Below are positions 8,737 to 58,969 of a DNA stretch of 64,000 nucleotides, in pieces. The notes under the pieces were generated by a model that saw only the letters and a program-made list of their open reading frames with translations, had not been told where the DNA came from and ran no database searches. The stretch is from a virus. Every line of letters starts with the position of its first letter. Positions within the stretch are counted from its first letter, which is position 1. Where the stretch lies: IMG/VR virus record IMGVR_UViG_3300003583_000001, positions 9,943 through 73,942 of that record; one strand, 5' to 3'. Position numbers and translations under genes: made by a program.

Positions 8737-8812
8737 TGGTGCTGCCACGAGGATTCGAACCCCGGACCTGAGGTTTACAAAACCCCTGCTCTACCGACTG
8801 AGCTATAGCAGC
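8737..8812 (-). tRNA. tRNA-Thr(UGU)
   Basis: GCTGCTATAGCTCAGTCGGTAGAGCAGGGGTTTTGTAAACCTCAGGTCCGGGGTTCGAATCCTCGTGGCAGCACCA; cloverleaf with encoded CCA. Confidence 0.95.
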
Positions 8813-10302: not shown

Positions 10303-10680
10303 TTAGAATTTAACTGAGGTTGTGAACCCCACAAAAGTATCTTGATATGCAGCGTCACCATCTGTCGTCATTTTAACATATGGCGTTACACCAACATTAA
10401 ACAATTCCAAATTGTATCCAGCTTCAAGTTCAACGCCGGTCAATTCAAACTCATCAACAAGTACTGTTGGCGTTACACCAACATAAATATTATTCCAATC
10501 GACGGTTGCGCTAGGCTCTGCTGTGATTGTGCCTGCATCGATTGCATATGCTACATCATTGCTGAGTGTAAGACCGAGACCATATGGCAATAGACCGCCT
10601 TCTGGTGCTGCTTCGCCATCTGCTAGTGCAGGCGAAGCAAGAAATGCTGTAACTGCTACAGCGGCTAGTAGCTTCTTCAT
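10303..10680 (-). CDS. small exported outer-membrane beta-barrel-like protein
   Basis: Sec signal MKKLLAAVAVTAFLASPALA, alternating beta-strand pattern, terminal Phe (GFTTSVKF). Confidence 0.7.
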   Translation of the reverse strand: MKKLLAAVAVTAFLASPALADGEAAPEGGLLPYGLGLTLSNDVAYAIDAGTITAEPSATVDWNNIYVGVTPTVLVDEFELTGVELEAGYNLELFNVGVTPYVKMTTDGDAAYQDTFVGFTTSVKF

Positions 10681-10704
10681 TTATTTGACTCCTTTAAAGT
10701 TAAA

Positions 10705-10965
10705 AATGACAGGAAGGTCCGAAGACCCCTTCTGTTTCCAAGCGTCCTGTCCCGCTCATAAGAATTATGCTGCTAGAGCATATTCCTGAGAAACGAAATT
10801 ATCGTTTGCATTTAGTTTGTTTTAGTCATATCGTGACCAATCGGTAACTCCAGTCCTCTATTATCTGCATGTCGAAACCTGTTTCGCCCCCATAAGGTTT
10901 ATGGTGGAGGCGTCCGGTACTGCCCCGGAGTCCATTACAGTTTTCAATTTCCTTCATCGTTACTT
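10705..10965 (-). ncRNA. ssrA: circularly permuted (two-piece) tmRNA; tag (A)ANDNFVSQEYALAA
   Basis: Acceptor piece ...CCGGGGCAGTACCGGACGCCTCCACCA ends at 10902; 10-nt spacer; 5' end GGGGGCGAAACAGGTTTCGAC at 10891; 7-bp acceptor stem with G3-U70; tag frame 10809-10765. Outer limits approximate. Confidence 0.95.
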
Positions 10966-11001
10966 CTGTATATATCTAATCCCAAAAGACTAGATATATA
11001 A

Positions 11002-16143: not shown

Positions 16144-16220
16144 TGGCGGTCCCTATAGGATTCGAACCTATGACCCACAGCTTAGAAGGCTGTTGCTCTA
16201 TCCAACTGAGCTAAGGAACC
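16144..16220 (-). tRNA. tRNA-Arg(UCU)
   Basis: GGTTCCTTAGCTCAGTTGGATAGAGCAACAGCCTTCTAAGCTGTGGGTCATAGGTTCGAATCCTATAGGGACCGCCA. Confidence 0.95.
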
Positions 16221-16927: not shown

Positions 16928-17002
16928 TGGCTCCGTGGGTAGGATTCGAACCTACGACCGGTCGGTTAACAGCCGACTGCTCTACCACTGAGCTACCACG
17001 GA
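16928..17002 (-). tRNA. tRNA-Asn(GUU)
   Basis: TCCGTGGTAGCTCAGTGGTAGAGCAGTCGGCTGTTAACCGACCGGTCGTAGGTTCGAATCCTACCCACGGAGCCA. Confidence 0.95.
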
Positions 17003-20158: not shown

Positions 20159-20524
20159 TTATCTCCTCATCTTTGCTAGTGCTTCAGCATCTTCAGTAGA
20201 AAACACTGGAACCATATTACTCTTGTGCATCGTTGCAATACCAAGTAGCTTACGCTTACCACTATATTGCATAGGTTCTTTTTTCGGTGCCACACCAGTT
20301 GGAATTTGATTAGAAAGCGTGGTGGGCCCGGCAGGATTCGAACCTGCGACAACGCCGTTATGAGCGGCGGGTTCTGACCGCTGAACTACAGGCCCGTTAT
20401 ATCCCATCTTCTTGAGAAACTTTGCATGAGCAGCATCTGTTTGTTGCTGCTTCTTTGACTTCTTCTGTTTTCGCTTCTTCGTACTCGTTGTACTGAAGTA
20501 AGCTGGAAGCATATGCATCGACAT
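20159..20524 (-). CDS. basic hypothetical protein with an in-frame embedded tRNA
   Basis: SD GAGGAG; promoter upstream; C-terminal YSG..LLGIATMHKSNMVPVF...A.MRR motif recalled from T4-like phage hypothetical proteins. Confidence 0.75.
   Translation of the reverse strand: MSMHMLPAYFSTTSTKKRKQKKSKKQQQTDAAHAKFLKKMGYNGPVVQRSEPAAHNGVVAGSNPAGPTTLSNQIPTGVAPKKEPMQYSGKRKLLGIATMHKSNMVPVFSTEDAEALAKMRR
20320..20395 (-). tRNA. tRNA with CAU anticodon, most likely tRNA-Ile2 (lysidine type)
   Basis: GGGCCTGTAGTTCAGCGGTCAGAACCCGCCGCTCATAACGGCGTTGTCGCAGGTTCGAATCCTGCCGGGCCCACCA; G1-C72 pair (not initiator); resembles bacterial Ile2 tRNAs. Confidence 0.88.
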
Positions 20525-52239: not shown

Positions 52240-52247
52240 TATAAATA
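52240..52247 (+). promoter_or_regulatory. T4 late promoter for the + strand exported-protein operon
   Basis: TATAAATA 40 nt upstream of ATG 52288. Confidence 0.8.
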
Positions 52248-52287: not shown

Positions 52288-52833
52288 ATGAATAGATTTA
52301 TCATTGCTTTGTTTGCTTTAATTTTTGCATCTACAAGCGCATATGCACAAACAGAAGATAAGATAACGACGGATAATACCAGTAGAATTGACTCTACGAC
52401 TACGGTTAAGTCTCCTCCGCCGTCTGCTATTTCTCCCACTATCAATACCTCAAATTCTGATTTGTGTACGATTGGCGTTTCCGGCGCTGTTCAGACACAG
52501 ATTCTAGGTCTGTCTGCTGGTAAGACTGTACGAGATATGAATTGTGAGAAGTTGAAGAATGCTAAAACGCTATATGATATGGGAATGAAAGTTGCTGCTG
52601 TATCTGTGATGTGTCAAGATAAACGAGTGTTTGATGCTATGATGCACGCCGGAACACCCTGCCCGTATGATGGTAAGATTGGAGTTGAGGCTAAAGCAGC
52701 GTGGCAAGACGATGAAGCGATGCAGCCAAAAGAAGAAAATACAGTTAGGAGTGTAATGGATGACGATAGCACGATTACCCTTATTGGTGGCGGCATTGTT
52801 CTCGGTTTGCTTACCATTCTCAGCTTACTCTGA
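52288..52833 (+). CDS. exported Cys-containing protein with amphipathic beta-hairpin and C-terminal TM anchor
   Basis: Signal peptide (AYA); C..GVSGAVQTQILGLSAG...NC...C...PCP; hydrophobic tail. Confidence 0.8.
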   Translation: MNRFIIALFALIFASTSAYAQTEDKITTDNTSRIDSTTTVKSPPPSAISPTINTSNSDLCTIGVSGAVQTQILGLSAGKTVRDMNCEKLKNAKTLYDMGMKVAAVSVMCQDKRVFDAMMHAGTPCPYDGKIGVEAKAAWQDDEAMQPKEENTVRSVMDDDSTITLIGGGIVLGLLTILSLL

Positions 52834-53611
52834 GACAAAGACTGCTACGTCTGGAAATGCAGCAGACGGTCAAACAGTATGGGACATGCAAACGATACTA
52901 CCACCTGAAACTGGTCTTATCGTAAATCAAGTACATTATAACTATACAGTAACAAAGGTTAGAGAAGACGACTTTACAGTAACGATTCAAAATGAAAGAG
53001 TTGGCGGTGGTGAAAACATCTTTGAAAGCACAGATGATTGGTCTGGATTAGACGGTAACACGATTGATAAGAATATACCCGTTGCAAATCTACCAAGAGA
53101 AATATGGGGGGATGGAAGTCTGACTACAACTGGCGAAGGAACTATAACAGACGCTAATGTTCGTTATAGCTATATATTTGACGACTGTCTTGACCCACTG
53201 ACGAATCCGTTATGCCCACAAGATGAACCACCAGAATTGCCTGTAATTATAAATCCATTTGATTCAGATGAAGTACAAAACGCTCTTGCAGACAAAGCAG
53301 ATGTAGATGATGAAGATGATGAACGTAAAGATGATGAAGAGAATAGTTTAGAGGACAAGGAAAAGAGAAGACAATTAGCACAAGAGAACAATCCACTACT
53401 AAACAATGCAGCACAGCTTGCTGCTTTGTTTGATCAAATGTCTCTTGTTCCTAAATTTGATTCGTATTATGCTGCTGATATACAAGGCGGCACCTATGAA
53501 GAAACTATTGAGTTAAAAGATGGTACATTACCTGATAACAGAAGGGCAATGAGAAGCCTCGCTAAAGACCAAAAGTTTGAAACAATCATTAGGTCACAGT
53601 ACGACAAATAG
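52760..53611 (+). CDS. exported beta-rich protein with CxxPxxxPxCP linker and acidic stalk
   Basis: Signal peptide; beta-strand-rich N-terminal domain; CLDPLTNPLCP; D/E-rich region; ends in SQYDK. Confidence 0.8.
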   Translation: MTIARLPLLVAALFSVCLPFSAYSETKTATSGNAADGQTVWDMQTILPPETGLIVNQVHYNYTVTKVREDDFTVTIQNERVGGGENIFESTDDWSGLDGNTIDKNIPVANLPREIWGDGSLTTTGEGTITDANVRYSYIFDDCLDPLTNPLCPQDEPPELPVIINPFDSDEVQNALADKADVDDEDDERKDDEENSLEDKEKRRQLAQENNPLLNNAAQLAALFDQMSLVPKFDSYYAADIQGGTYEETIELKDGTLPDNRRAMRSLAKDQKFETIIRSQYDK

Positions 53612-53622
53612 GAGATAAGAAT

Positions 53623-54135
53623 ATGGCTAAGAGAACGATAGGTTATTTTTTAGCAATCGTTGGAGCAGTATTTGCAAGTCAAGCACTCGCAAACGAAAAT
53701 GCACCAATCACAGGAACAGTAGAATCTAAGTGTGTAATCTTTACTGAAACACAAGGTGTATATGGCACACCACTTGCAAGCAGACTTTCTACTACTGCGG
53801 CAGATGGTGGTGTTCAACCAATCATTCGTTATGACGTAGCGCTTGCTGATGCGTTTAAAGGAAAAATAACATTTCCAAGTGAATTTTCAAGTTCACCAAG
53901 CCTAACAGATACTCTAGCATTCACAGGGAATGTTGAAGTTCATAGTGTATCTGATACTGGAATGGCGGACTATGACACTAACAAAATAACATTCAACAAC
54001 ACTCACGAATATGATTTGACGGTTGCTGGTACAACTAAGTTCAAAATCTCTTCACAGGTAGACTACGGTAACAGTAAGGCTCTCCCTGCTGGTACATATA
54101 CAACACTTGTAAATGCGGAGTGTATCGCAAAGTAA
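53623..54135 (+). CDS. putative fimbrial subunit (Csu/SCPU archaic chaperone-usher pilin-like)
   Basis: Signal (ALA); N-terminal ITGTVESKC strand; C-terminal LPAGTYTTLVNAEC; about 148 aa, all-beta mature chain. Confidence 0.6.
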   Translation: MAKRTIGYFLAIVGAVFASQALANENAPITGTVESKCVIFTETQGVYGTPLASRLSTTAADGGVQPIIRYDVALADAFKGKITFPSEFSSSPSLTDTLAFTGNVEVHSVSDTGMADYDTNKITFNNTHEYDLTVAGTTKFKISSQVDYGNSKALPAGTYTTLVNAECIAK

Positions 54136-54146
54136 GGTAAGATATT

Positions 54147-54518
54147 ATGAAAATTGCAATTTTAGCAGCAGCGTTATTGTTTTCCTTTAGCGCTGCTGCT
54201 CATGAAATGACACCGGCATATTTAAAGATTAAACAATCTGAAGTGACTGATGTATATGCTACAGAGATTAAGATGTACAACAGAAGAAGTGATGTTGATT
54301 ACTATCAAATATCTGTATTTGATGGTCAGTGGAACAGGCTTCCATTTGCATCGTTTCAACGACTATTCAAACTTCCTTATACGAAAAGAAAAACGATTAA
54401 GGTGTATTTTCAAAAAGAAGTTGCTAATAAAGTCGTATATGTTTGTACAAAATCTAAGTTATATAAGGGAGCGGGAACATTCGTATCCTCAAGAATATGC
54501 TCTAAAGTAAAACGATGA
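54147..54518 (+). CDS. putative single-domain PapD-like periplasmic pilus chaperone
   Basis: Signal (AAA); HEMTPAYLKI...IKMYN.....YYQISV.D...F.L.....K.I.V...SRI resembles PapD N-domain strand order. Confidence 0.5.
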   Translation: MKIAILAAALLFSFSAAAHEMTPAYLKIKQSEVTDVYATEIKMYNRRSDVDYYQISVFDGQWNRLPFASFQRLFKLPYTKRKTIKVYFQKEVANKVVYVCTKSKLYKGAGTFVSSRICSKVKR

Positions 54519-54898
54519 AATACGTTATAGCATTGCTCGCATTGCTATTCAGCTTTAATGCATATGGTCAATCTTTGAACTTGAGTATTCCAAGTGCGCC
54601 AAGCAACTTTGGAAGTGATAGATTTCGTGCTGGGGATTTAGATTGTCAAAACTCTATTGGCTCTGCAACAAACCTTGAGTTTGGTGTTACAGGCATTCAA
54701 AGAGGTGATCCACAATTTGATGACAGTTCGCCAGACGTTGGTGTGTATGCAAGAATTGTGATACCACTTGGCGCAAGACCAAGGTCAAGGGTCAACTGTA
54801 ATACTCTTTATCAACTAGAACTATCAAAGAAACGATTAGAAATACTCAGACTTGAGAGGGAACTCAACCAACTAAAAGCATTACAGTTTGAGGACTAG
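54515..54898 (+). CDS. exported protein with Cys-flanked amphipathic beta-hairpin and C-terminal coiled coil
   Basis: Signal (AYG); DC...NLEFGVTG...DVGVYARIVIPL...NC..LYQLEL...LE..RL..EL. Confidence 0.8.
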   Translation: MKYVIALLALLFSFNAYGQSLNLSIPSAPSNFGSDRFRAGDLDCQNSIGSATNLEFGVTGIQRGDPQFDDSSPDVGVYARIVIPLGARPRSRVNCNTLYQLELSKKRLEILRLERELNQLKALQFED

Positions 54899-54907
54899 GA
54901 GAGAATA

Positions 54908-55387
54908 ATGGCAGAAGTAGAAATTGCTGGTATGAAGTTGAAAGGGGGCAAGATGATGGTCCTCTTTACAGTTCTATCTACTCTTGCAGGTGGTTTATGG
55001 GCTGGTTTTGAGTTCTACAAAGACTACATGGACATGAAAGAGATTGTTGAGAACATCGACATACAAGCCATTAAAGCAGACAATGCTCTTGTAGTGACGA
55101 AACTAGAAGAGGCAATAGACTATACCAGAGATATTAAACAAGGGTTGAAAGACGACATCATTCGTATGGAAAAGGTGACGGATGATACCAATCGTAGAAT
55201 GAAAGTTCTTCAGAGAGATATTGACCTTCGTATGAGAGAACTGTCGGACCTTTCTCGTGAGTCTGAGAAGGACGCTAGAGATACTATGCGTGAAACAGAG
55301 GATCGTATAGATGGTAAGATGGAAAAGCTCGATGCGAGTCTAAGAAAGACCCTTCAAGAAGCACTTGACAACCCACTAACAAAATAA
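54908..55387 (+). CDS. inner-membrane-anchored coiled-coil protein
   Basis: N-terminal TM (MMVLFTVLSTLAGGLWAGF), long heptad region, ends in ALDNPL. Confidence 0.8.
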   Translation: MAEVEIAGMKLKGGKMMVLFTVLSTLAGGLWAGFEFYKDYMDMKEIVENIDIQAIKADNALVVTKLEEAIDYTRDIKQGLKDDIIRMEKVTDDTNRRMKVLQRDIDLRMRELSDLSRESEKDARDTMRETEDRIDGKMEKLDASLRKTLQEALDNPLTK

Positions 55388-55430
55388 ATTTAAAAAAGTT
55401 TTGTTTTGAGTAAGTTTTTCGTATAAATAG

Positions 55431-55562
55431 ATCACTAGGGTGCGTGTTAGTGTATTCAAAGGAGTACAAGAGGCAAGTGTTAAGATCAAGTCGATCCAAA
55501 GCAAGGAAAAGTCGTTGTCGCCCATATGGGCCGCTGGGGTTGCGTTCGACCACGTTACTAGG
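55431..55562 (+). ncRNA. candidate late structured ncRNA (about 130 nt)
   Basis: TATAAATA at 55422-55429; closing stems CTAG/CTAG and CGTG/CACG; hairpins TGTATTC/GAGTACA and GCCCATATGGGC; terminator follows. Confidence 0.55.
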
Positions 55563-55567
55563 AAAAT

Positions 55568-55597
55568 AAAAGCCGCTTCTTACGAGGCGGCTTTTTT
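55568..55597. terminator. probable bidirectional intrinsic terminator
   Basis: AAAAGCCGCTTC-TTAC-GAGGCGGCTTTTTT between convergent units. Confidence 0.88.
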
Positions 55598-55600
55598 AAT

Positions 55601-56035
55601 TCATCGATAATTTGATTCTTCCTCAACTGCATAGTGGTGTCTACCAAATTTACCATCCAATGTGTATATGAGGGTGGGAATTTTATGATCTAATATGCAT
55701 TCTTGACAACCAGCGCATGGTTGAGACAGTCCAAATATCATATTTTGATGAACATCATTCTTCACACGACACACATAGATACTACATTTCTTCAAAATAT
55801 TAGTATCAACGACTTTGAGTGCGTTGTAGATAGCATTAGTTTCTGCGTGCCAGAAGATTGCTTCATCATTCTTTGCATATCTAGCTTGAAACGGATGACT
55901 CTTCATGTGACTAGTACCGAAAGAAACTATCTTATTTTTATAGACAATAGCAGCAACGTGGCGAGGCCACACATTCGCAAGGTCGAGTGCTGCTGGCTTC
56001 AGTATATTAAAAACTTCACTGTGTTTCATCTTCAT
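55601..56035 (-). CDS. second zinc-dependent deaminase-family protein
   Basis: H.AAIV.K..IVS.G...HAE..AI...SQPCAGC. Confidence 0.8.
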   Translation of the reverse strand: MKMKHSEVFNILKPAALDLANVWPRHVAAIVYKNKIVSFGTSHMKSHPFQARYAKNDEAIFWHAETNAIYNALKVVDTNILKKCSIYVCRVKNDVHQNMIFGLSQPCAGCQECILDHKIPTLIYTLDGKFGRHHYAVEEESNYR

Positions 56036-56219
56036 CCATTAAATAAGGGGCTATACAATATGTGAAAAAATTGGGTGTGTTACCGTTAAATCCTTTACCA
56101 AGATTTAATCCTCTACACACCTCATTCGCTCGCCTTCGACTTTTAAACGTCATTATGACGGTTTGCTCATTTTCTATTAACGCATATTCTCCATCTCTGT
56201 GATTTATTTCGTACGACAT
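56016..56219 (-). CDS. hypothetical protein
   Basis: LN.G.GF.G.TP.FF; coupled to gp41. Confidence 0.7.
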   Translation of the reverse strand: MSYEINHRDGEYALIENEQTVIMTFKSRRRANEVCRGLNLGKGFNGNTPNFFTYCIAPYLMDEDETQ

Positions 56220-57634
56220 TACGCAAAACTAGCCTTCCATATATTTTTACCAAACTTTTTAGGAAGGGTTGAGTCTTTCTCTTGTTCATCCCATCGTTCA
56301 CCATATGAACTATTGCTCATGACTGGTGTATCATCTACCATACCATCTTGTGCTGATTGTTCTACGTTATAGAACCTCATTCTCGAACGGTCGATGCCAA
56401 TCACGAAACGCTTGTTCGAATTTGGATCGCCCCATCGATTTTTCAACTGCTTAATCATAATCTGACCAAGTTGTTCTAGTTCTTCAGTAGCAATCAGAGC
56501 GACCATAAAGTCAGCGGTAGCAGGCAGACCAAACGATTCAGAAGTATCTTCAAGACCAACATCAGAACTGCTGAAGCCAGAGCGTGTGGTCTGAGTAGCA
56601 GATACAATAGGAACATCATACTCTACAGCAAGACCACGAAGTTCTTCAGCAATGGACTTGATTAGTGTGTACGAGTTTGCCATAGCGTTTGCTTTGATAC
56701 GACTGCTTGTACAGATGTTCAGATAATCAATATAGATGATATCTGGAGTGAAGTTCTTCTTGAGTTTCAGTTCGTTCAGTAGATGACGGAAATGACCTGA
56801 CCCAGCAGATGCTGTTGGATATTCTTTGACAATCAGCTTACCTGGAGTTTTTGACTTCAGTCGATTGACTTTCTTTTCAAAAACATCTTTAGGCATCATG
56901 TGGATTTCATCAATAGAAGCATCAAGCAGATTTGCATCAATGCGTTCAGCGATTCGTTCTTCAGCCATTTCTAGTGTAATATACAATACGTTCTTGCCGT
57001 GCATGAGATTGCTCGCAGCAAAATGACACATAGCAAGAGACTTACCCACGCCAGTACCAGCAAGAATGATATTGAGAGATTTACGAGGAAGACCACCCTT
57101 CGTAATGGTATTTAGCAGTTCGATATCAAACTCAATTCTGGCTTCTTTACGATGGTAGAACTCATATCGTTCATCAACATTCTCAAGAAAATCATGCCCG
57201 ACGCTATTGTCGAATGACACACCCAAAGCATCTTGAAGTAGCTTGGGTATAGAGCCTTTGTCTAGCTTGCTATCATTGGAATCCATAACACCAATCGATG
57301 TTCGAATCGCATTGTAGAGTGCTTTGTCTTGACAGAAGGTCTCGGTCTTATCAAGCAGCCAGTCTTCGCTGTTCTTATCATCATACGACAGTTCATTGAT
57401 TGTTTTAGAAACAACTTCAAACTGTTCTTCTGATACACTACGAGACTCTTCCAACGAAAGACGCAGAGCATCCTTCGTTGGCACAGAGTTGTAGTCTTTG
57501 ATATAGGTATCAATAGTGCGATAGATTAACTTGTTCTCTAAACTATCAAAATATTCTTCTTCTAAAAACGGTAATACTTTCCTCGTATATTCTTCATTAT
57601 GTAATAGACTCCCTAGAATGAGAGGTTCAATCAT
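56219..57634 (-). CDS. 41: replicative DNA helicase (T4 gp41)
   Basis: AGTGVGKS, ITLEMAEE, KEYPT, IDYLNIC, IAEELRGLA, ATQTTRSG, SESFGLPATAD, KQLKNR. Confidence 0.97.
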   Translation of the reverse strand: MIEPLILGSLLHNEEYTRKVLPFLEEEYFDSLENKLIYRTIDTYIKDYNSVPTKDALRLSLEESRSVSEEQFEVVSKTINELSYDDKNSEDWLLDKTETFCQDKALYNAIRTSIGVMDSNDSKLDKGSIPKLLQDALGVSFDNSVGHDFLENVDERYEFYHRKEARIEFDIELLNTITKGGLPRKSLNIILAGTGVGKSLAMCHFAASNLMHGKNVLYITLEMAEERIAERIDANLLDASIDEIHMMPKDVFEKKVNRLKSKTPGKLIVKEYPTASAGSGHFRHLLNELKLKKNFTPDIIYIDYLNICTSSRIKANAMANSYTLIKSIAEELRGLAVEYDVPIVSATQTTRSGFSSSDVGLEDTSESFGLPATADFMVALIATEELEQLGQIMIKQLKNRWGDPNSNKRFVIGIDRSRMRFYNVEQSAQDGMVDDTPVMSNSSYGERWDEQEKDSTLPKKFGKNIWKASFA

Positions 57635-57651
57635 GTAATATTCCTTCTATA

Positions 57652-57924
57652 TTAACCACCAACAAACACGTTGGTCACACCAGCATTTCGTTCATGCCCA
57701 CAACTATCCGCATCACCCTTTCTATTTACAGGCTCGCCTTCAGCAATCACTGTCGAACTTCCATTCTTAGTAACTGGTGCCGCATGAACACCAATGCCAT
57801 GACCAGCTACAGGGTCGTCATCAGTTGCCACAAGTTCTCCCGCTGCATACACAGTTTGTACGCTTGTTGACGTAACAGCAGCACCCGCTGTATTTTTTAG
57901 AGTGAGAGTATGTATCTCAGGCAT
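57652..57924 (-). CDS. PAAR-like spike-tip protein (T4 gp5.4-like)
   Basis: H....H......GSSTV.AEG.PV.R.GD..SCGH...G..NVFVGG. Confidence 0.8.
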   Translation of the reverse strand: MPEIHTLTLKNTAGAAVTSTSVQTVYAAGELVATDDDPVAGHGIGVHAAPVTKNGSSTVIAEGEPVNRKGDADSCGHERNAGVTNVFVGG

Positions 57925-58969
57925 CTATTGTTTCCTCGTCTGGTGCAAACATTGCTGTTTCACCAATAGTGTACCGACTCTTAATATACTCTGAAAAGTC
58001 GGTGGTTGTAAACATATTTGTCCAAAATTTTCCATTATCTTGAATATCTTTTGCTCGCTTCTTCTCACCAACAAGTTCACCCGTCTCACGATCTACAAGT
58101 TGATACCAACCATTTGAAGGCTTCGCTAGATAGTTCGCTTCAAGAGCCAGAGCCATCAAACCAGACCACTTATTGATACCACCTTCCCATGTCACTGAGA
58201 TTGGAATCTTAGACTTCTCTTTGATGTAACGAGATTTTTCTACGTTGATTACAAAGTGATAACCAGCAATATCAGTACCATCTTTCTCTTGTTGGCGACC
58301 AATAATCCAGATGTTATCAGCGGAGTAGTAGATGCCAGTACCACCAGAAACAACTGCTTTAGGAAACATACCAATTTCCATATAGGTATGATTCACAGCA
58401 ATCAATGGGATATCTTTGAGTGTAAGATGTGGTGTTACCATACGAAACAAAGACTTCATCTGCTTTGCACGAGACATATCAGCGACTGACTTCTCGTTCA
58501 TAGCATCTTCGACTTCTTTCTTAGACGCTAGATTGCCTACAGAATCGATGATGATACACACACGGTCACCTCGTTCGATACCGTCAAGTTGCTTCATGAT
58601 ATCAAACTTCAGTTGCTCAACATCCATAATAGGAGTGTGAACAACACGATCCATATCAATATCAAATGATTCAAAGTAGTTTTGAGGCGTACCAAACTCA
58701 GAGTCATAGAACAACACAACAGCATCATCATACTTCTTCAGATAAGCACTCGCCATTAGTAGAGAGAATGCAGTCTTGAAATGCTTCGATGGTCCAGCAA
58801 GCACTGTAAGCCCAGGTGTCAATCCACCATCAACTCGACCAGACAATGCGACATTGACCATAGGCACCTGTGTTGGCACCATCTCTTTCTTACCATAAAC
58901 TTTCGAGTTGGAAAGCGTAGCAGTAAGTTTGACTGTACTATTTTTAGTCAGTCTATCAAGTAGGCTCAT
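57917..58969 (-). CDS. uvsX: RecA-like recombinase
   Basis: AGPSKHFKT, FYDSEFG, IDSVGNLASKKE, NHTY, SGGTG..YSAD, KSR..KE. Confidence 0.97.
   Translation of the reverse strand: MSLLDRLTKNSTVKLTATLSNSKVYGKKEMVPTQVPMVNVALSGRVDGGLTPGLTVLAGPSKHFKTAFSLLMASAYLKKYDDAVVLFYDSEFGTPQNYFESFDIDMDRVVHTPIMDVEQLKFDIMKQLDGIERGDRVCIIIDSVGNLASKKEVEDAMNEKSVADMSRAKQMKSLFRMVTPHLTLKDIPLIAVNHTYMEIGMFPKAVVSGGTGIYYSADNIWIIGRQQEKDGTDIAGYHFVINVEKSRYIKEKSKIPISVTWEGGINKWSGLMALALEANYLAKPSNGWYQLVDRETGELVGEKKRAKDIQDNGKFWTNMFTTTDFSEYIKSRYTIGETAMFAPDEETIDA

Follow-up and report, generated by a model that had tools for sequence, protein, structure and literature searches.

Genomic Setting of the RNA Gene

On the plus strand of the phage DNA analysed here, a late promoter motif and an intrinsic terminator enclose an independent gene for a structured, non-coding RNA of ~160 nt. 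The DNA originates from a 73.9-kb IMG/VR viral contig (completeness estimate, 43%) of an uncultured, T4-like marine myophage, and the 64,000-nucleotide stretch that was analysed is referred to as the window, whose numbering is used throughout. Directly upstream of the RNA unit is a gene for a 159-aa protein with no Pfam match (54908-55387, plus strand). On the other side, the minus strand encodes a gene 41-type DnaB helicase (56219-57634; Pfam DnaB_C), which is a convergent neighbour and not part of the RNA, followed on the helicase side by the UvsX gene (57917-58969, minus strand). The gene 41 helicase and UvsX proteins share only ~59-66% identity with those of the closest cultured phages.

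ARAGORN and Rfam also identified four tRNAs and a two-piece tmRNA in the window. The genes for tRNA-Thr, tRNA-Arg, tRNA-Asn and tRNA-Met are located, in that order of listing, at 8737-8812, 16144-16220, 16928-17002 and 20320-20395 (the last on the minus strand), while the permuted, alpha-type tmRNA with the tag ANDNFVSQEYALAA is encoded at 10674-10996 on the minus strand. The same tRNA and two-piece tmRNA features have been described in phage Melnitz and the pelagimyophages (PMC9004378; PMC7029224).

Gene 41, with its 3' end towards the RNA, is downstream of the RNA and, like uvsX, convergent with it in 69 of the 74 loci having at least 700 nt of flank, with a median of 342 nt between the RNA core and the gene 41 stop and with zero to four small genes in between. 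On the side away from gene 41, gene content varies among loci, and no other protein gene was a constant neighbour across the loci inspected. A partner gene was sought among the ~140-aa neighbours and rejected, as these represent three unrelated families. The RNA occurs once per contig, and in many loci the flanking genes on both sides are opposite to it in strand, indicating that it constitutes a unit of its own.

A preliminary description of the sequence had placed the RNA directly after an exported-protein operon. That position applies to the window's own subclade only; elsewhere, the conserved neighbour is the convergent gene 41. Relatives of the 159-aa protein are encoded at more than 500 IMG/VR loci, and one with 38% identity occurs in Pelagibacter phage HTVC115P. 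Of the IMG/VR loci, only the closest carry the RNA element, and a covariance-model search of 70 other loci sharing the upstream gene found no RNA. Farther upstream in the window are four consecutive small ORFs (52760-54898, plus strand) that have signal-peptide-like N-termini, no Pfam match and their own TATAAATA motif at 52240; pelagimyophages reportedly possess a curli-like cluster.

Promoter, Terminator and Transcription Unit

The unit begins with TATAAATA, a T4-type late promoter motif at 55422-55429 (plus strand) that is conserved among the homologues. It is kept in 71 of the 72 distinct loci with full flanks and, in 65 of those 71, lies 7-9 nt before the invariant sequence GGGUGCG of the RNA. 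The window contains 13 occurrences of the motif, versus 4.5 expected. By the geometry of T4 promoters, where the motif is positioned about 6 nt upstream of the start, transcription is predicted to begin at ~55435, and the nature of the motif likewise suggests that the RNA is expressed late.

The 134-nt RNA core (55434-55567, plus strand) runs into an intrinsic terminator made up of an A-tract, a GC-rich hairpin and six T residues (55563-55597, plus strand), which is usable in both directions in this window. The hairpin and T-run, GCCGCTTC-TTAC-GAGGCGGC-TTTTTT, occupy 55572-55597 with a folding energy of -15.3 kcal/mol. A hairpin and T-run were found 3' of the core in all loci inspected, and promoter and T-run are oriented for the plus strand throughout. 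The original reading of the locus, namely, a self-contained unit with a late promoter motif, about 130 nt that are GC-richer than the flanks and a strong terminator, is thereby confirmed in the sequence, with the qualification that the GC excess of the core is modest (0.46-0.48 versus 0.32-0.44 in the flanks).

The stop codon of the 159-aa gene, a short distance before the RNA promoter, lies within an AU-rich inverted repeat, AACAAAA...TTTTGTT (55378-55405, plus strand). A similar repeat is present in locus L084, and it may serve as a weak terminator or a processing site.

Contigs from the marine RNA libraries of three studies also contain the RNA stretch, and one of these contigs, 180 nt long, is identical to the window over 55404-55583. 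Such contigs, taken from Logan, attest to presence only and not to ends, strand or level, and DNA carry-over is possible. Some RNA-library contigs extend across the promoter, or across the terminator. In one study, two contigs have ends at 55433/55434, near the predicted start, and these were considered as start-site evidence; this was rejected, since strains differ at 55430-55432 and a branch in the assembly graph explains the ends.

A Family of Homologous RNAs

Homologues were retrieved using conserved blocks of the RNA element as anchors, with two covariance models being constructed in the process. Each invariant block was left unanchored in at least one retrieval, and members with altered blocks could still be missed. 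The resulting family comprises 94 matches in viral and metagenome contigs, with 56 distinct cores and covariance-model scores of 74-127 bits. The 56 distinct cores form the basis for counts on structure and coding, the 72 distinct loci with full flanks for those on promoter and terminator, and the 74 loci with at least 700 nt of flank for those on gene 41. Among carriers, the helicase next to the RNA drops to as little as 62% amino-acid identity, whereas the invariant RNA blocks are unchanged.

Searches beyond these contigs were negative, and the RNA was found in none of the cultured phages tested. When the region was compared by blastn with 50,697 phage records, no match was returned, and the cores of two diverged members gave terminator matches only. 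Covariance model R2 found no homologue in the complete phages C48C1, Melnitz, HTVC008M, T4, DLP_6, S-IOM18 and AG-345-F15, with a best E of 0.9 against the whole T4 record. In 151 sampled Alphaproteobacteria, a model search yielded two weak, partial matches that lack the whole 3' domain and were judged to be chance, and a pattern scan of bacterial genomes gave 29 matches, approximately the number we estimated for chance, none of which fits the model.

The Rfam comparison that the preliminary description had proposed as a check likewise produced no family match, either for the window or for diverse members. At the gathering threshold, Rfam 15 identified only the tmRNA and tRNAs in the whole window, all located elsewhere; in the region 55300-55700, with E up to 10, only weak, terminator-driven matches appeared, and among 11 diverse members no family recurred at the RNA. 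No published account of the RNA turned up in the literature searches. As judged by comparison of sequences, then, the RNA is a member of a real, previously undescribed family of structured phage RNAs that has been kept by many related, uncultured phages.

Secondary Structure, Helix by Helix

The architecture supported by the aligned members consists of a closing stem, P0/P1, leading into a four-way junction with P2, a variable P2b and P5, the last of which opens into P3 and P4. All of the elements described below are on the plus strand.

P0 pairs CUAG at 55435-55438 with CUAG at 55558-55561, and its partners are clade-specific: CUAG/CUAG, GCAU/GUGC or GCAU/AUGC, UGUAG/CUACA, and GUAA/UUAU. Among members, the duplex energy of a leader with its own tail was better than in 200 of 200 permutations, and P0 is weak or absent in some clades. 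The invariant GGGUGCGUG follows at 55438-55446 and includes the 5' strand of P1 (GCGUG, 55442-55446), which pairs with CACGU at 55551-55555. This 5' strand is invariant, and changes in the 3' strand are wobble-compatible only. The pairing of the two ends was first noted as CTAG at 55435 with 55558 and CGTG at 55443-55446 with CACG at 55551-55554, and it stands, given that P1 tolerates nothing but wobble changes and that the two strands of P0 covary from clade to clade.

P2 is a hairpin, UGUAUUC-AAAG-GAGUACA, at 55451-55468 (strands 55451-55457 and 55462-55468) in which six of seven pairs have changes on both sides. A competing ACAC/GUGU pairing was rejected, being unsupported by the variants. 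At the junction of P2 and P2b is the invariant, unpaired strand AGAGGCAAG (55469-55477). P2b, within 55478-55503, is a hairpin of variable length and sequence, with a distal GAUC/GAUC helix in the window. Its base pair covaries, being G-C in 40 members and U-A in 10, and the remainder is unalignable between clades. A conserved AGGAA-N-A strand then leads into the 5' strand of P5, GUCG(UU), at 55504-55516, where GGAA-N-AGUCG is invariant.

P5 joins 55511-55516 to UUCGAC at 55545-55550, and its position 5 covaries (A-U in 26, G-C in 18 and G.U in 8). Within it, P3 (GCCC-AUAU-GGGC, 55520-55531; strands 55520-55523 and 55528-55531) has both-side changes in four of four pairs and is paired in 98.7% of cells. 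P4 (CGC-UGGGGUU-GCG, 55532-55544; strands 55532-55534 and 55542-55544) covaries in three of three pairs, is paired in 100% of cells and accounts for the top mutual-information scores. The 3' strands of P5 (UUCGAC), P1 (CACGU) and P0 (CUAG) follow P4 without interruption at 55545-55561, apart from an insert of 0-3 nt between P5 and P1 in some clades.

The three hairpins originally proposed, TGTATTC-AAAG-GAGTACA (55451-55468), GATC-AAGTC-GATC (55484-55496) and GCCC-ATAT-GGGC (55520-55531), are all present as read. A further suggestion, a GCAA/TTGC helix, proved to be unsupported; TTGC is instead the end of the invariant UGGGGUU loop together with the 3' strand of the covarying, 3-bp CGC/GCG stem.

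The continuous strand on which P4, P5 and P1 are built is reminiscent of the acceptor and T arms of tRNA, complete with a cap in the form of a 7-nt loop, and an invariant U after P1 resembles U8. Since the phage encodes tRNAs and a tmRNA, it is conceivable that the RNA could be a tRNA-like processing or decoy substrate. This is very unlikely, however, as the RNA has no T-loop sequence, CCA or D-loop GG, and its 3' end runs on into P0 and the terminator. The five genes found by ARAGORN are all elsewhere, and neither the tRNA nor the tmRNA model of Rfam matches at the RNA, in agreement with the earlier remark that it is not tRNA-like.

Statistical Support, Strand and Coding Potential

Folding of the single sequence gave z = -1.09 without the terminator and z = -3.3 with it. 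The fold without the terminator is thus no better than chance, and the case for a structured RNA rests on the comparison of homologues. In the 56 distinct sequences, standard pairs occupy 96.0% of pair cells, versus 24-56% when partners are slid by 1-3 columns. Changes on both sides were seen in 15 of 25 pairs, and the observed covariation was reached by none of 500 shuffles, with the same picture when 25 sequences were used. Moreover, the column pairs with the highest mutual information are exactly the proposed base pairs, and an alignment of four sequences by MAFFT and RNAalifold, independent of the covariance model, gave the same helices. The preliminary description had called the RNA a multibranch non-coding RNA and had named covariation as the test, and covariation is abundant in four helices.

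The composition of the pairs also bears on what kind of molecule is folded. G.U pairs number 64 and A.C pairs 8, which indicates that the folded molecule is plus-strand RNA rather than DNA or the minus strand. A DNA-level element, such as an origin, a packaging site or a recombination site, or else a minus-strand structure, could be envisaged because the site lies where convergent modules meet and where strains recombine. This is extremely improbable, given that the helices work only as plus-strand RNA and that promoter and T-run share that orientation in all loci.

A small protein gene is an even more remote explanation, with a probability that is close to negligible. Two candidate frames, a 30-codon GTG ORF at 55477-55569 and a 56-codon ORF from 55440, are open in the window and its closest relatives. 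Among the 56 distinct members, however, the GTG ORF has a stop (TGA) at codon 2 in 39 and a start other than GTG in 7, while the frame from 55440 contains stops in 37. The same invariant nucleotides fall in all three frames in different members, and substitutions between the window and L084 have no third-position bias and include compensatory pairs in the hairpins. With no frame conserved among the 56 members, the original view that the unit has no convincing ORF is upheld, and the protein conservation of the GTG ORF that would have argued otherwise is not seen.

Invariant Unpaired Blocks

The most strongly conserved parts of the RNA are not its helices. In well-occupied columns, 28 of 80 unpaired positions are at least 97% identical, as opposed to 9 of 48 paired ones, and the invariant unpaired blocks are GGGUGCG, AGAGGCAAG, GGAA-N-AGUCG and the loop UGGGGUU. 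GGGUGCG is identical in 56 of 56 distinct cores, including sets retrieved without anchoring there. AGAGGCAAG and GGAA-N-AGUCG were also invariant in the retrieval sets left unanchored on each, and the UGGGGUU loop was unchanged in 38 loci retrieved without anchoring on it. This pattern of constraint, as read from the alignment, is that of aptamers, ribozymes and ribonucleoprotein RNAs and not that of seed-type sRNAs.

Invariant single strands could nonetheless act as seeds, and a base-pairing, possibly Hfq-type sRNA directed at host or phage mRNAs is the first alternative to consider. The RNA has its own promoter and an intrinsic, Rho-independent terminator, its unpaired 9-nt blocks are invariant, and Hfq might bind the U-tail and AGG-AAN-AGU, the latter of which we take to be an (ARN)3-like Hfq motif. 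We regard this alternative as rather doubtful. Five covarying helices and ~37 near-invariant positions spread over the junctions are far above what seed-type sRNAs keep. In addition, sites complementary to AGAGGCAAG are no more frequent in the window than chance predicts (17 versus 13.3 expected), the one further exact site does not coincide with a gene start, and complementarity to the tmRNA and tRNAs of the phage is unremarkable (z of -1.25 to +0.18). The target search covered the phage window.

The invariant junction nucleotides surrounding covarying stems would also be compatible with a new ribozyme, self-cleaving or otherwise, or with an RNA-only assembly; phages and marine metagenomes commonly contain large, ornate RNAs as well as ribozymes of several classes. 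Such a role seems quite improbable here, considering that no Rfam 15 ribozyme family matches, that the context is neither repeated nor circular, and that the sequence gives no indication of a cleavage site.

Comparison with Known RNAs

Orphan structured RNAs of phages are a kind already known, and what is new in the present case is the family itself and its late, stand-alone arrangement beside gene 41. GOLLD, ROOL, manA, wcaG and PhotoRC provide the closest parallels; they too are phage-borne, were defined only by covariation and conserved junctions, are abundant in uncultured marine viruses and were of unknown function at discovery. The RNA differs from all of them in lacking any sequence or structure match to them in Rfam 15 and, moreover, is much smaller than GOLLD or ROOL. 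In addition, manA, wcaG and PhotoRC are 5' leaders of genes, whereas this RNA stands alone, between a late promoter and a terminator that belong to it.

T4 produces stable RNAs, species 1 and 2 (rnaC and rnaD), that are small and non-coding and whose role is unknown. The present RNA is similarly a small, non-coding RNA of a T4-type phage. While rnaC and rnaD are processed from the transcript of the tRNA cluster, it has its own late promoter and is beside gene 41, not near the tRNAs of the window.

Within the same broad phage group, phage Melnitz and the pelagimyophages possess units made up of a glutamine riboswitch and a terminator (PMC9004378). The RNA resembles these in being a conserved, multi-helix RNA directly before an intrinsic terminator. 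It is unlike the Melnitz riboswitch in having no same-strand gene downstream, no conserved antiterminator and no match to the glnA model or to that of any other riboswitch, and it is absent from Melnitz and HTVC008M; conversely, no glutamine riboswitch was found in the window at the Rfam threshold.

A related possibility is that the RNA is a riboswitch-like sensor that gates its own terminator, where failed termination would send an antisense transcript into gene 41 and uvsX and thereby shut down the replication genes. The RNA has an aptamer-like fold, with covarying helices and invariant junctions, directly upstream of a terminator, the placement against gene 41 is convergent in 69 of 74 loci, and relatives in this phage group do carry riboswitches (PMC9004378). 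However, no shared antiterminator pairing was seen by inspection, and a candidate in L101 is not kept in L099. The terminators are unrelated between clades and are separated from the core by an A-rich spacer, there is no same-strand ORF downstream, and no known riboswitch class in Rfam 15 matches. On this evidence, a sensor of this sort is unlikely.

Finally, 6S RNA, Y RNA and CsrB-type RNAs correspond to the working model proposed here, as stand-alone genes for stable, trans-acting RNAs in which conserved, unpaired elements bind protein. The RNA has no homology to any of them and a different architecture, and membership in these groups is not claimed.

Possible Functions

With a probability that we put at roughly 50%, the RNA is a stable, trans-acting molecule in which an invariant, purine-rich junction and loop, held in place by the covarying stems, offer a protein or small ligand a surface to bind. 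In such a scheme, T4-type late machinery would transcribe the RNA from ~55435 to the U-tract at 55597, and the paired 5' end and the terminator hairpin would make it long-lived. The folded RNA would then act in trans. Its stems would be scaffolding, as suggested by their free covariation, while the junction strands GGGU, AGAGGCAAG and AGGAA-N-A, together with the UGGGGUU loop, would form the binding surface. In late infection, it would thus serve as a scaffold, a decoy or a sensor and not as an antisense regulator or an mRNA. The strict convergent placement beside gene 41 could instead point to a cis or antisense role.

More speculatively, and with little expectation on our part, the RNA might represent a new functional class, namely, a ribozyme or a sensor of metabolites or proteins, working in trans at a late stage of infection. 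Four invariant G-runs (GGGU, AGAGG, AGGAA and UGGGGUU), joined at the junction and possibly arranged as G-quartets or some other purine-rich platform, would make up its core. If this were true, abundant ocean phages would be using RNA for an activity with no characterised counterpart. Few ocean viruses are as abundant as the T4-like phages of streamlined marine bacteria, and their hosts rely heavily on RNA-based regulation.

Retention of the blocks while the neighbouring helicase drifts to 62% identity implies that the RNA has a function under strong selection in late infection, one missed by annotation pipelines and RNA databases. The RNA offers a well-defined target for structural and binding work in vitro, and candidate late processes in which it could conceivably participate include host takeover, evasion of defence and the timing of replication shut-off.

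Probable Recombination at the RNA Locus

Near-identical strains differ at the terminator. The hairpin is present either as GCCGCTTCTTACGAGGCGGC or as its exact reverse complement, as seen when 55572-55591 of the window is compared with L082:1950-1975, L001 and L091. The flip coincides with different downstream genes, specifically with the presence or absence of a deaminase-like gene, and suggests that recombination breakpoints fall within a shared, bidirectional terminator. In the window, this gene is at 55601-56035 (minus strand) and encodes a 144-aa cytidine/dCMP-deaminase-like protein (PF00383, E = 6e-7); among cultured phages, its best relative is encoded by Caulobacter phage Cr30 (41%). 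It adjoins the RNA in some strains and is elsewhere or missing in others. In another example, a metagenome copy of the RNA (L200:1666-1801) is chimeric, being of the window type up to P3 and of the L093 type from P4 on, which implies recombination inside the RNA gene itself.
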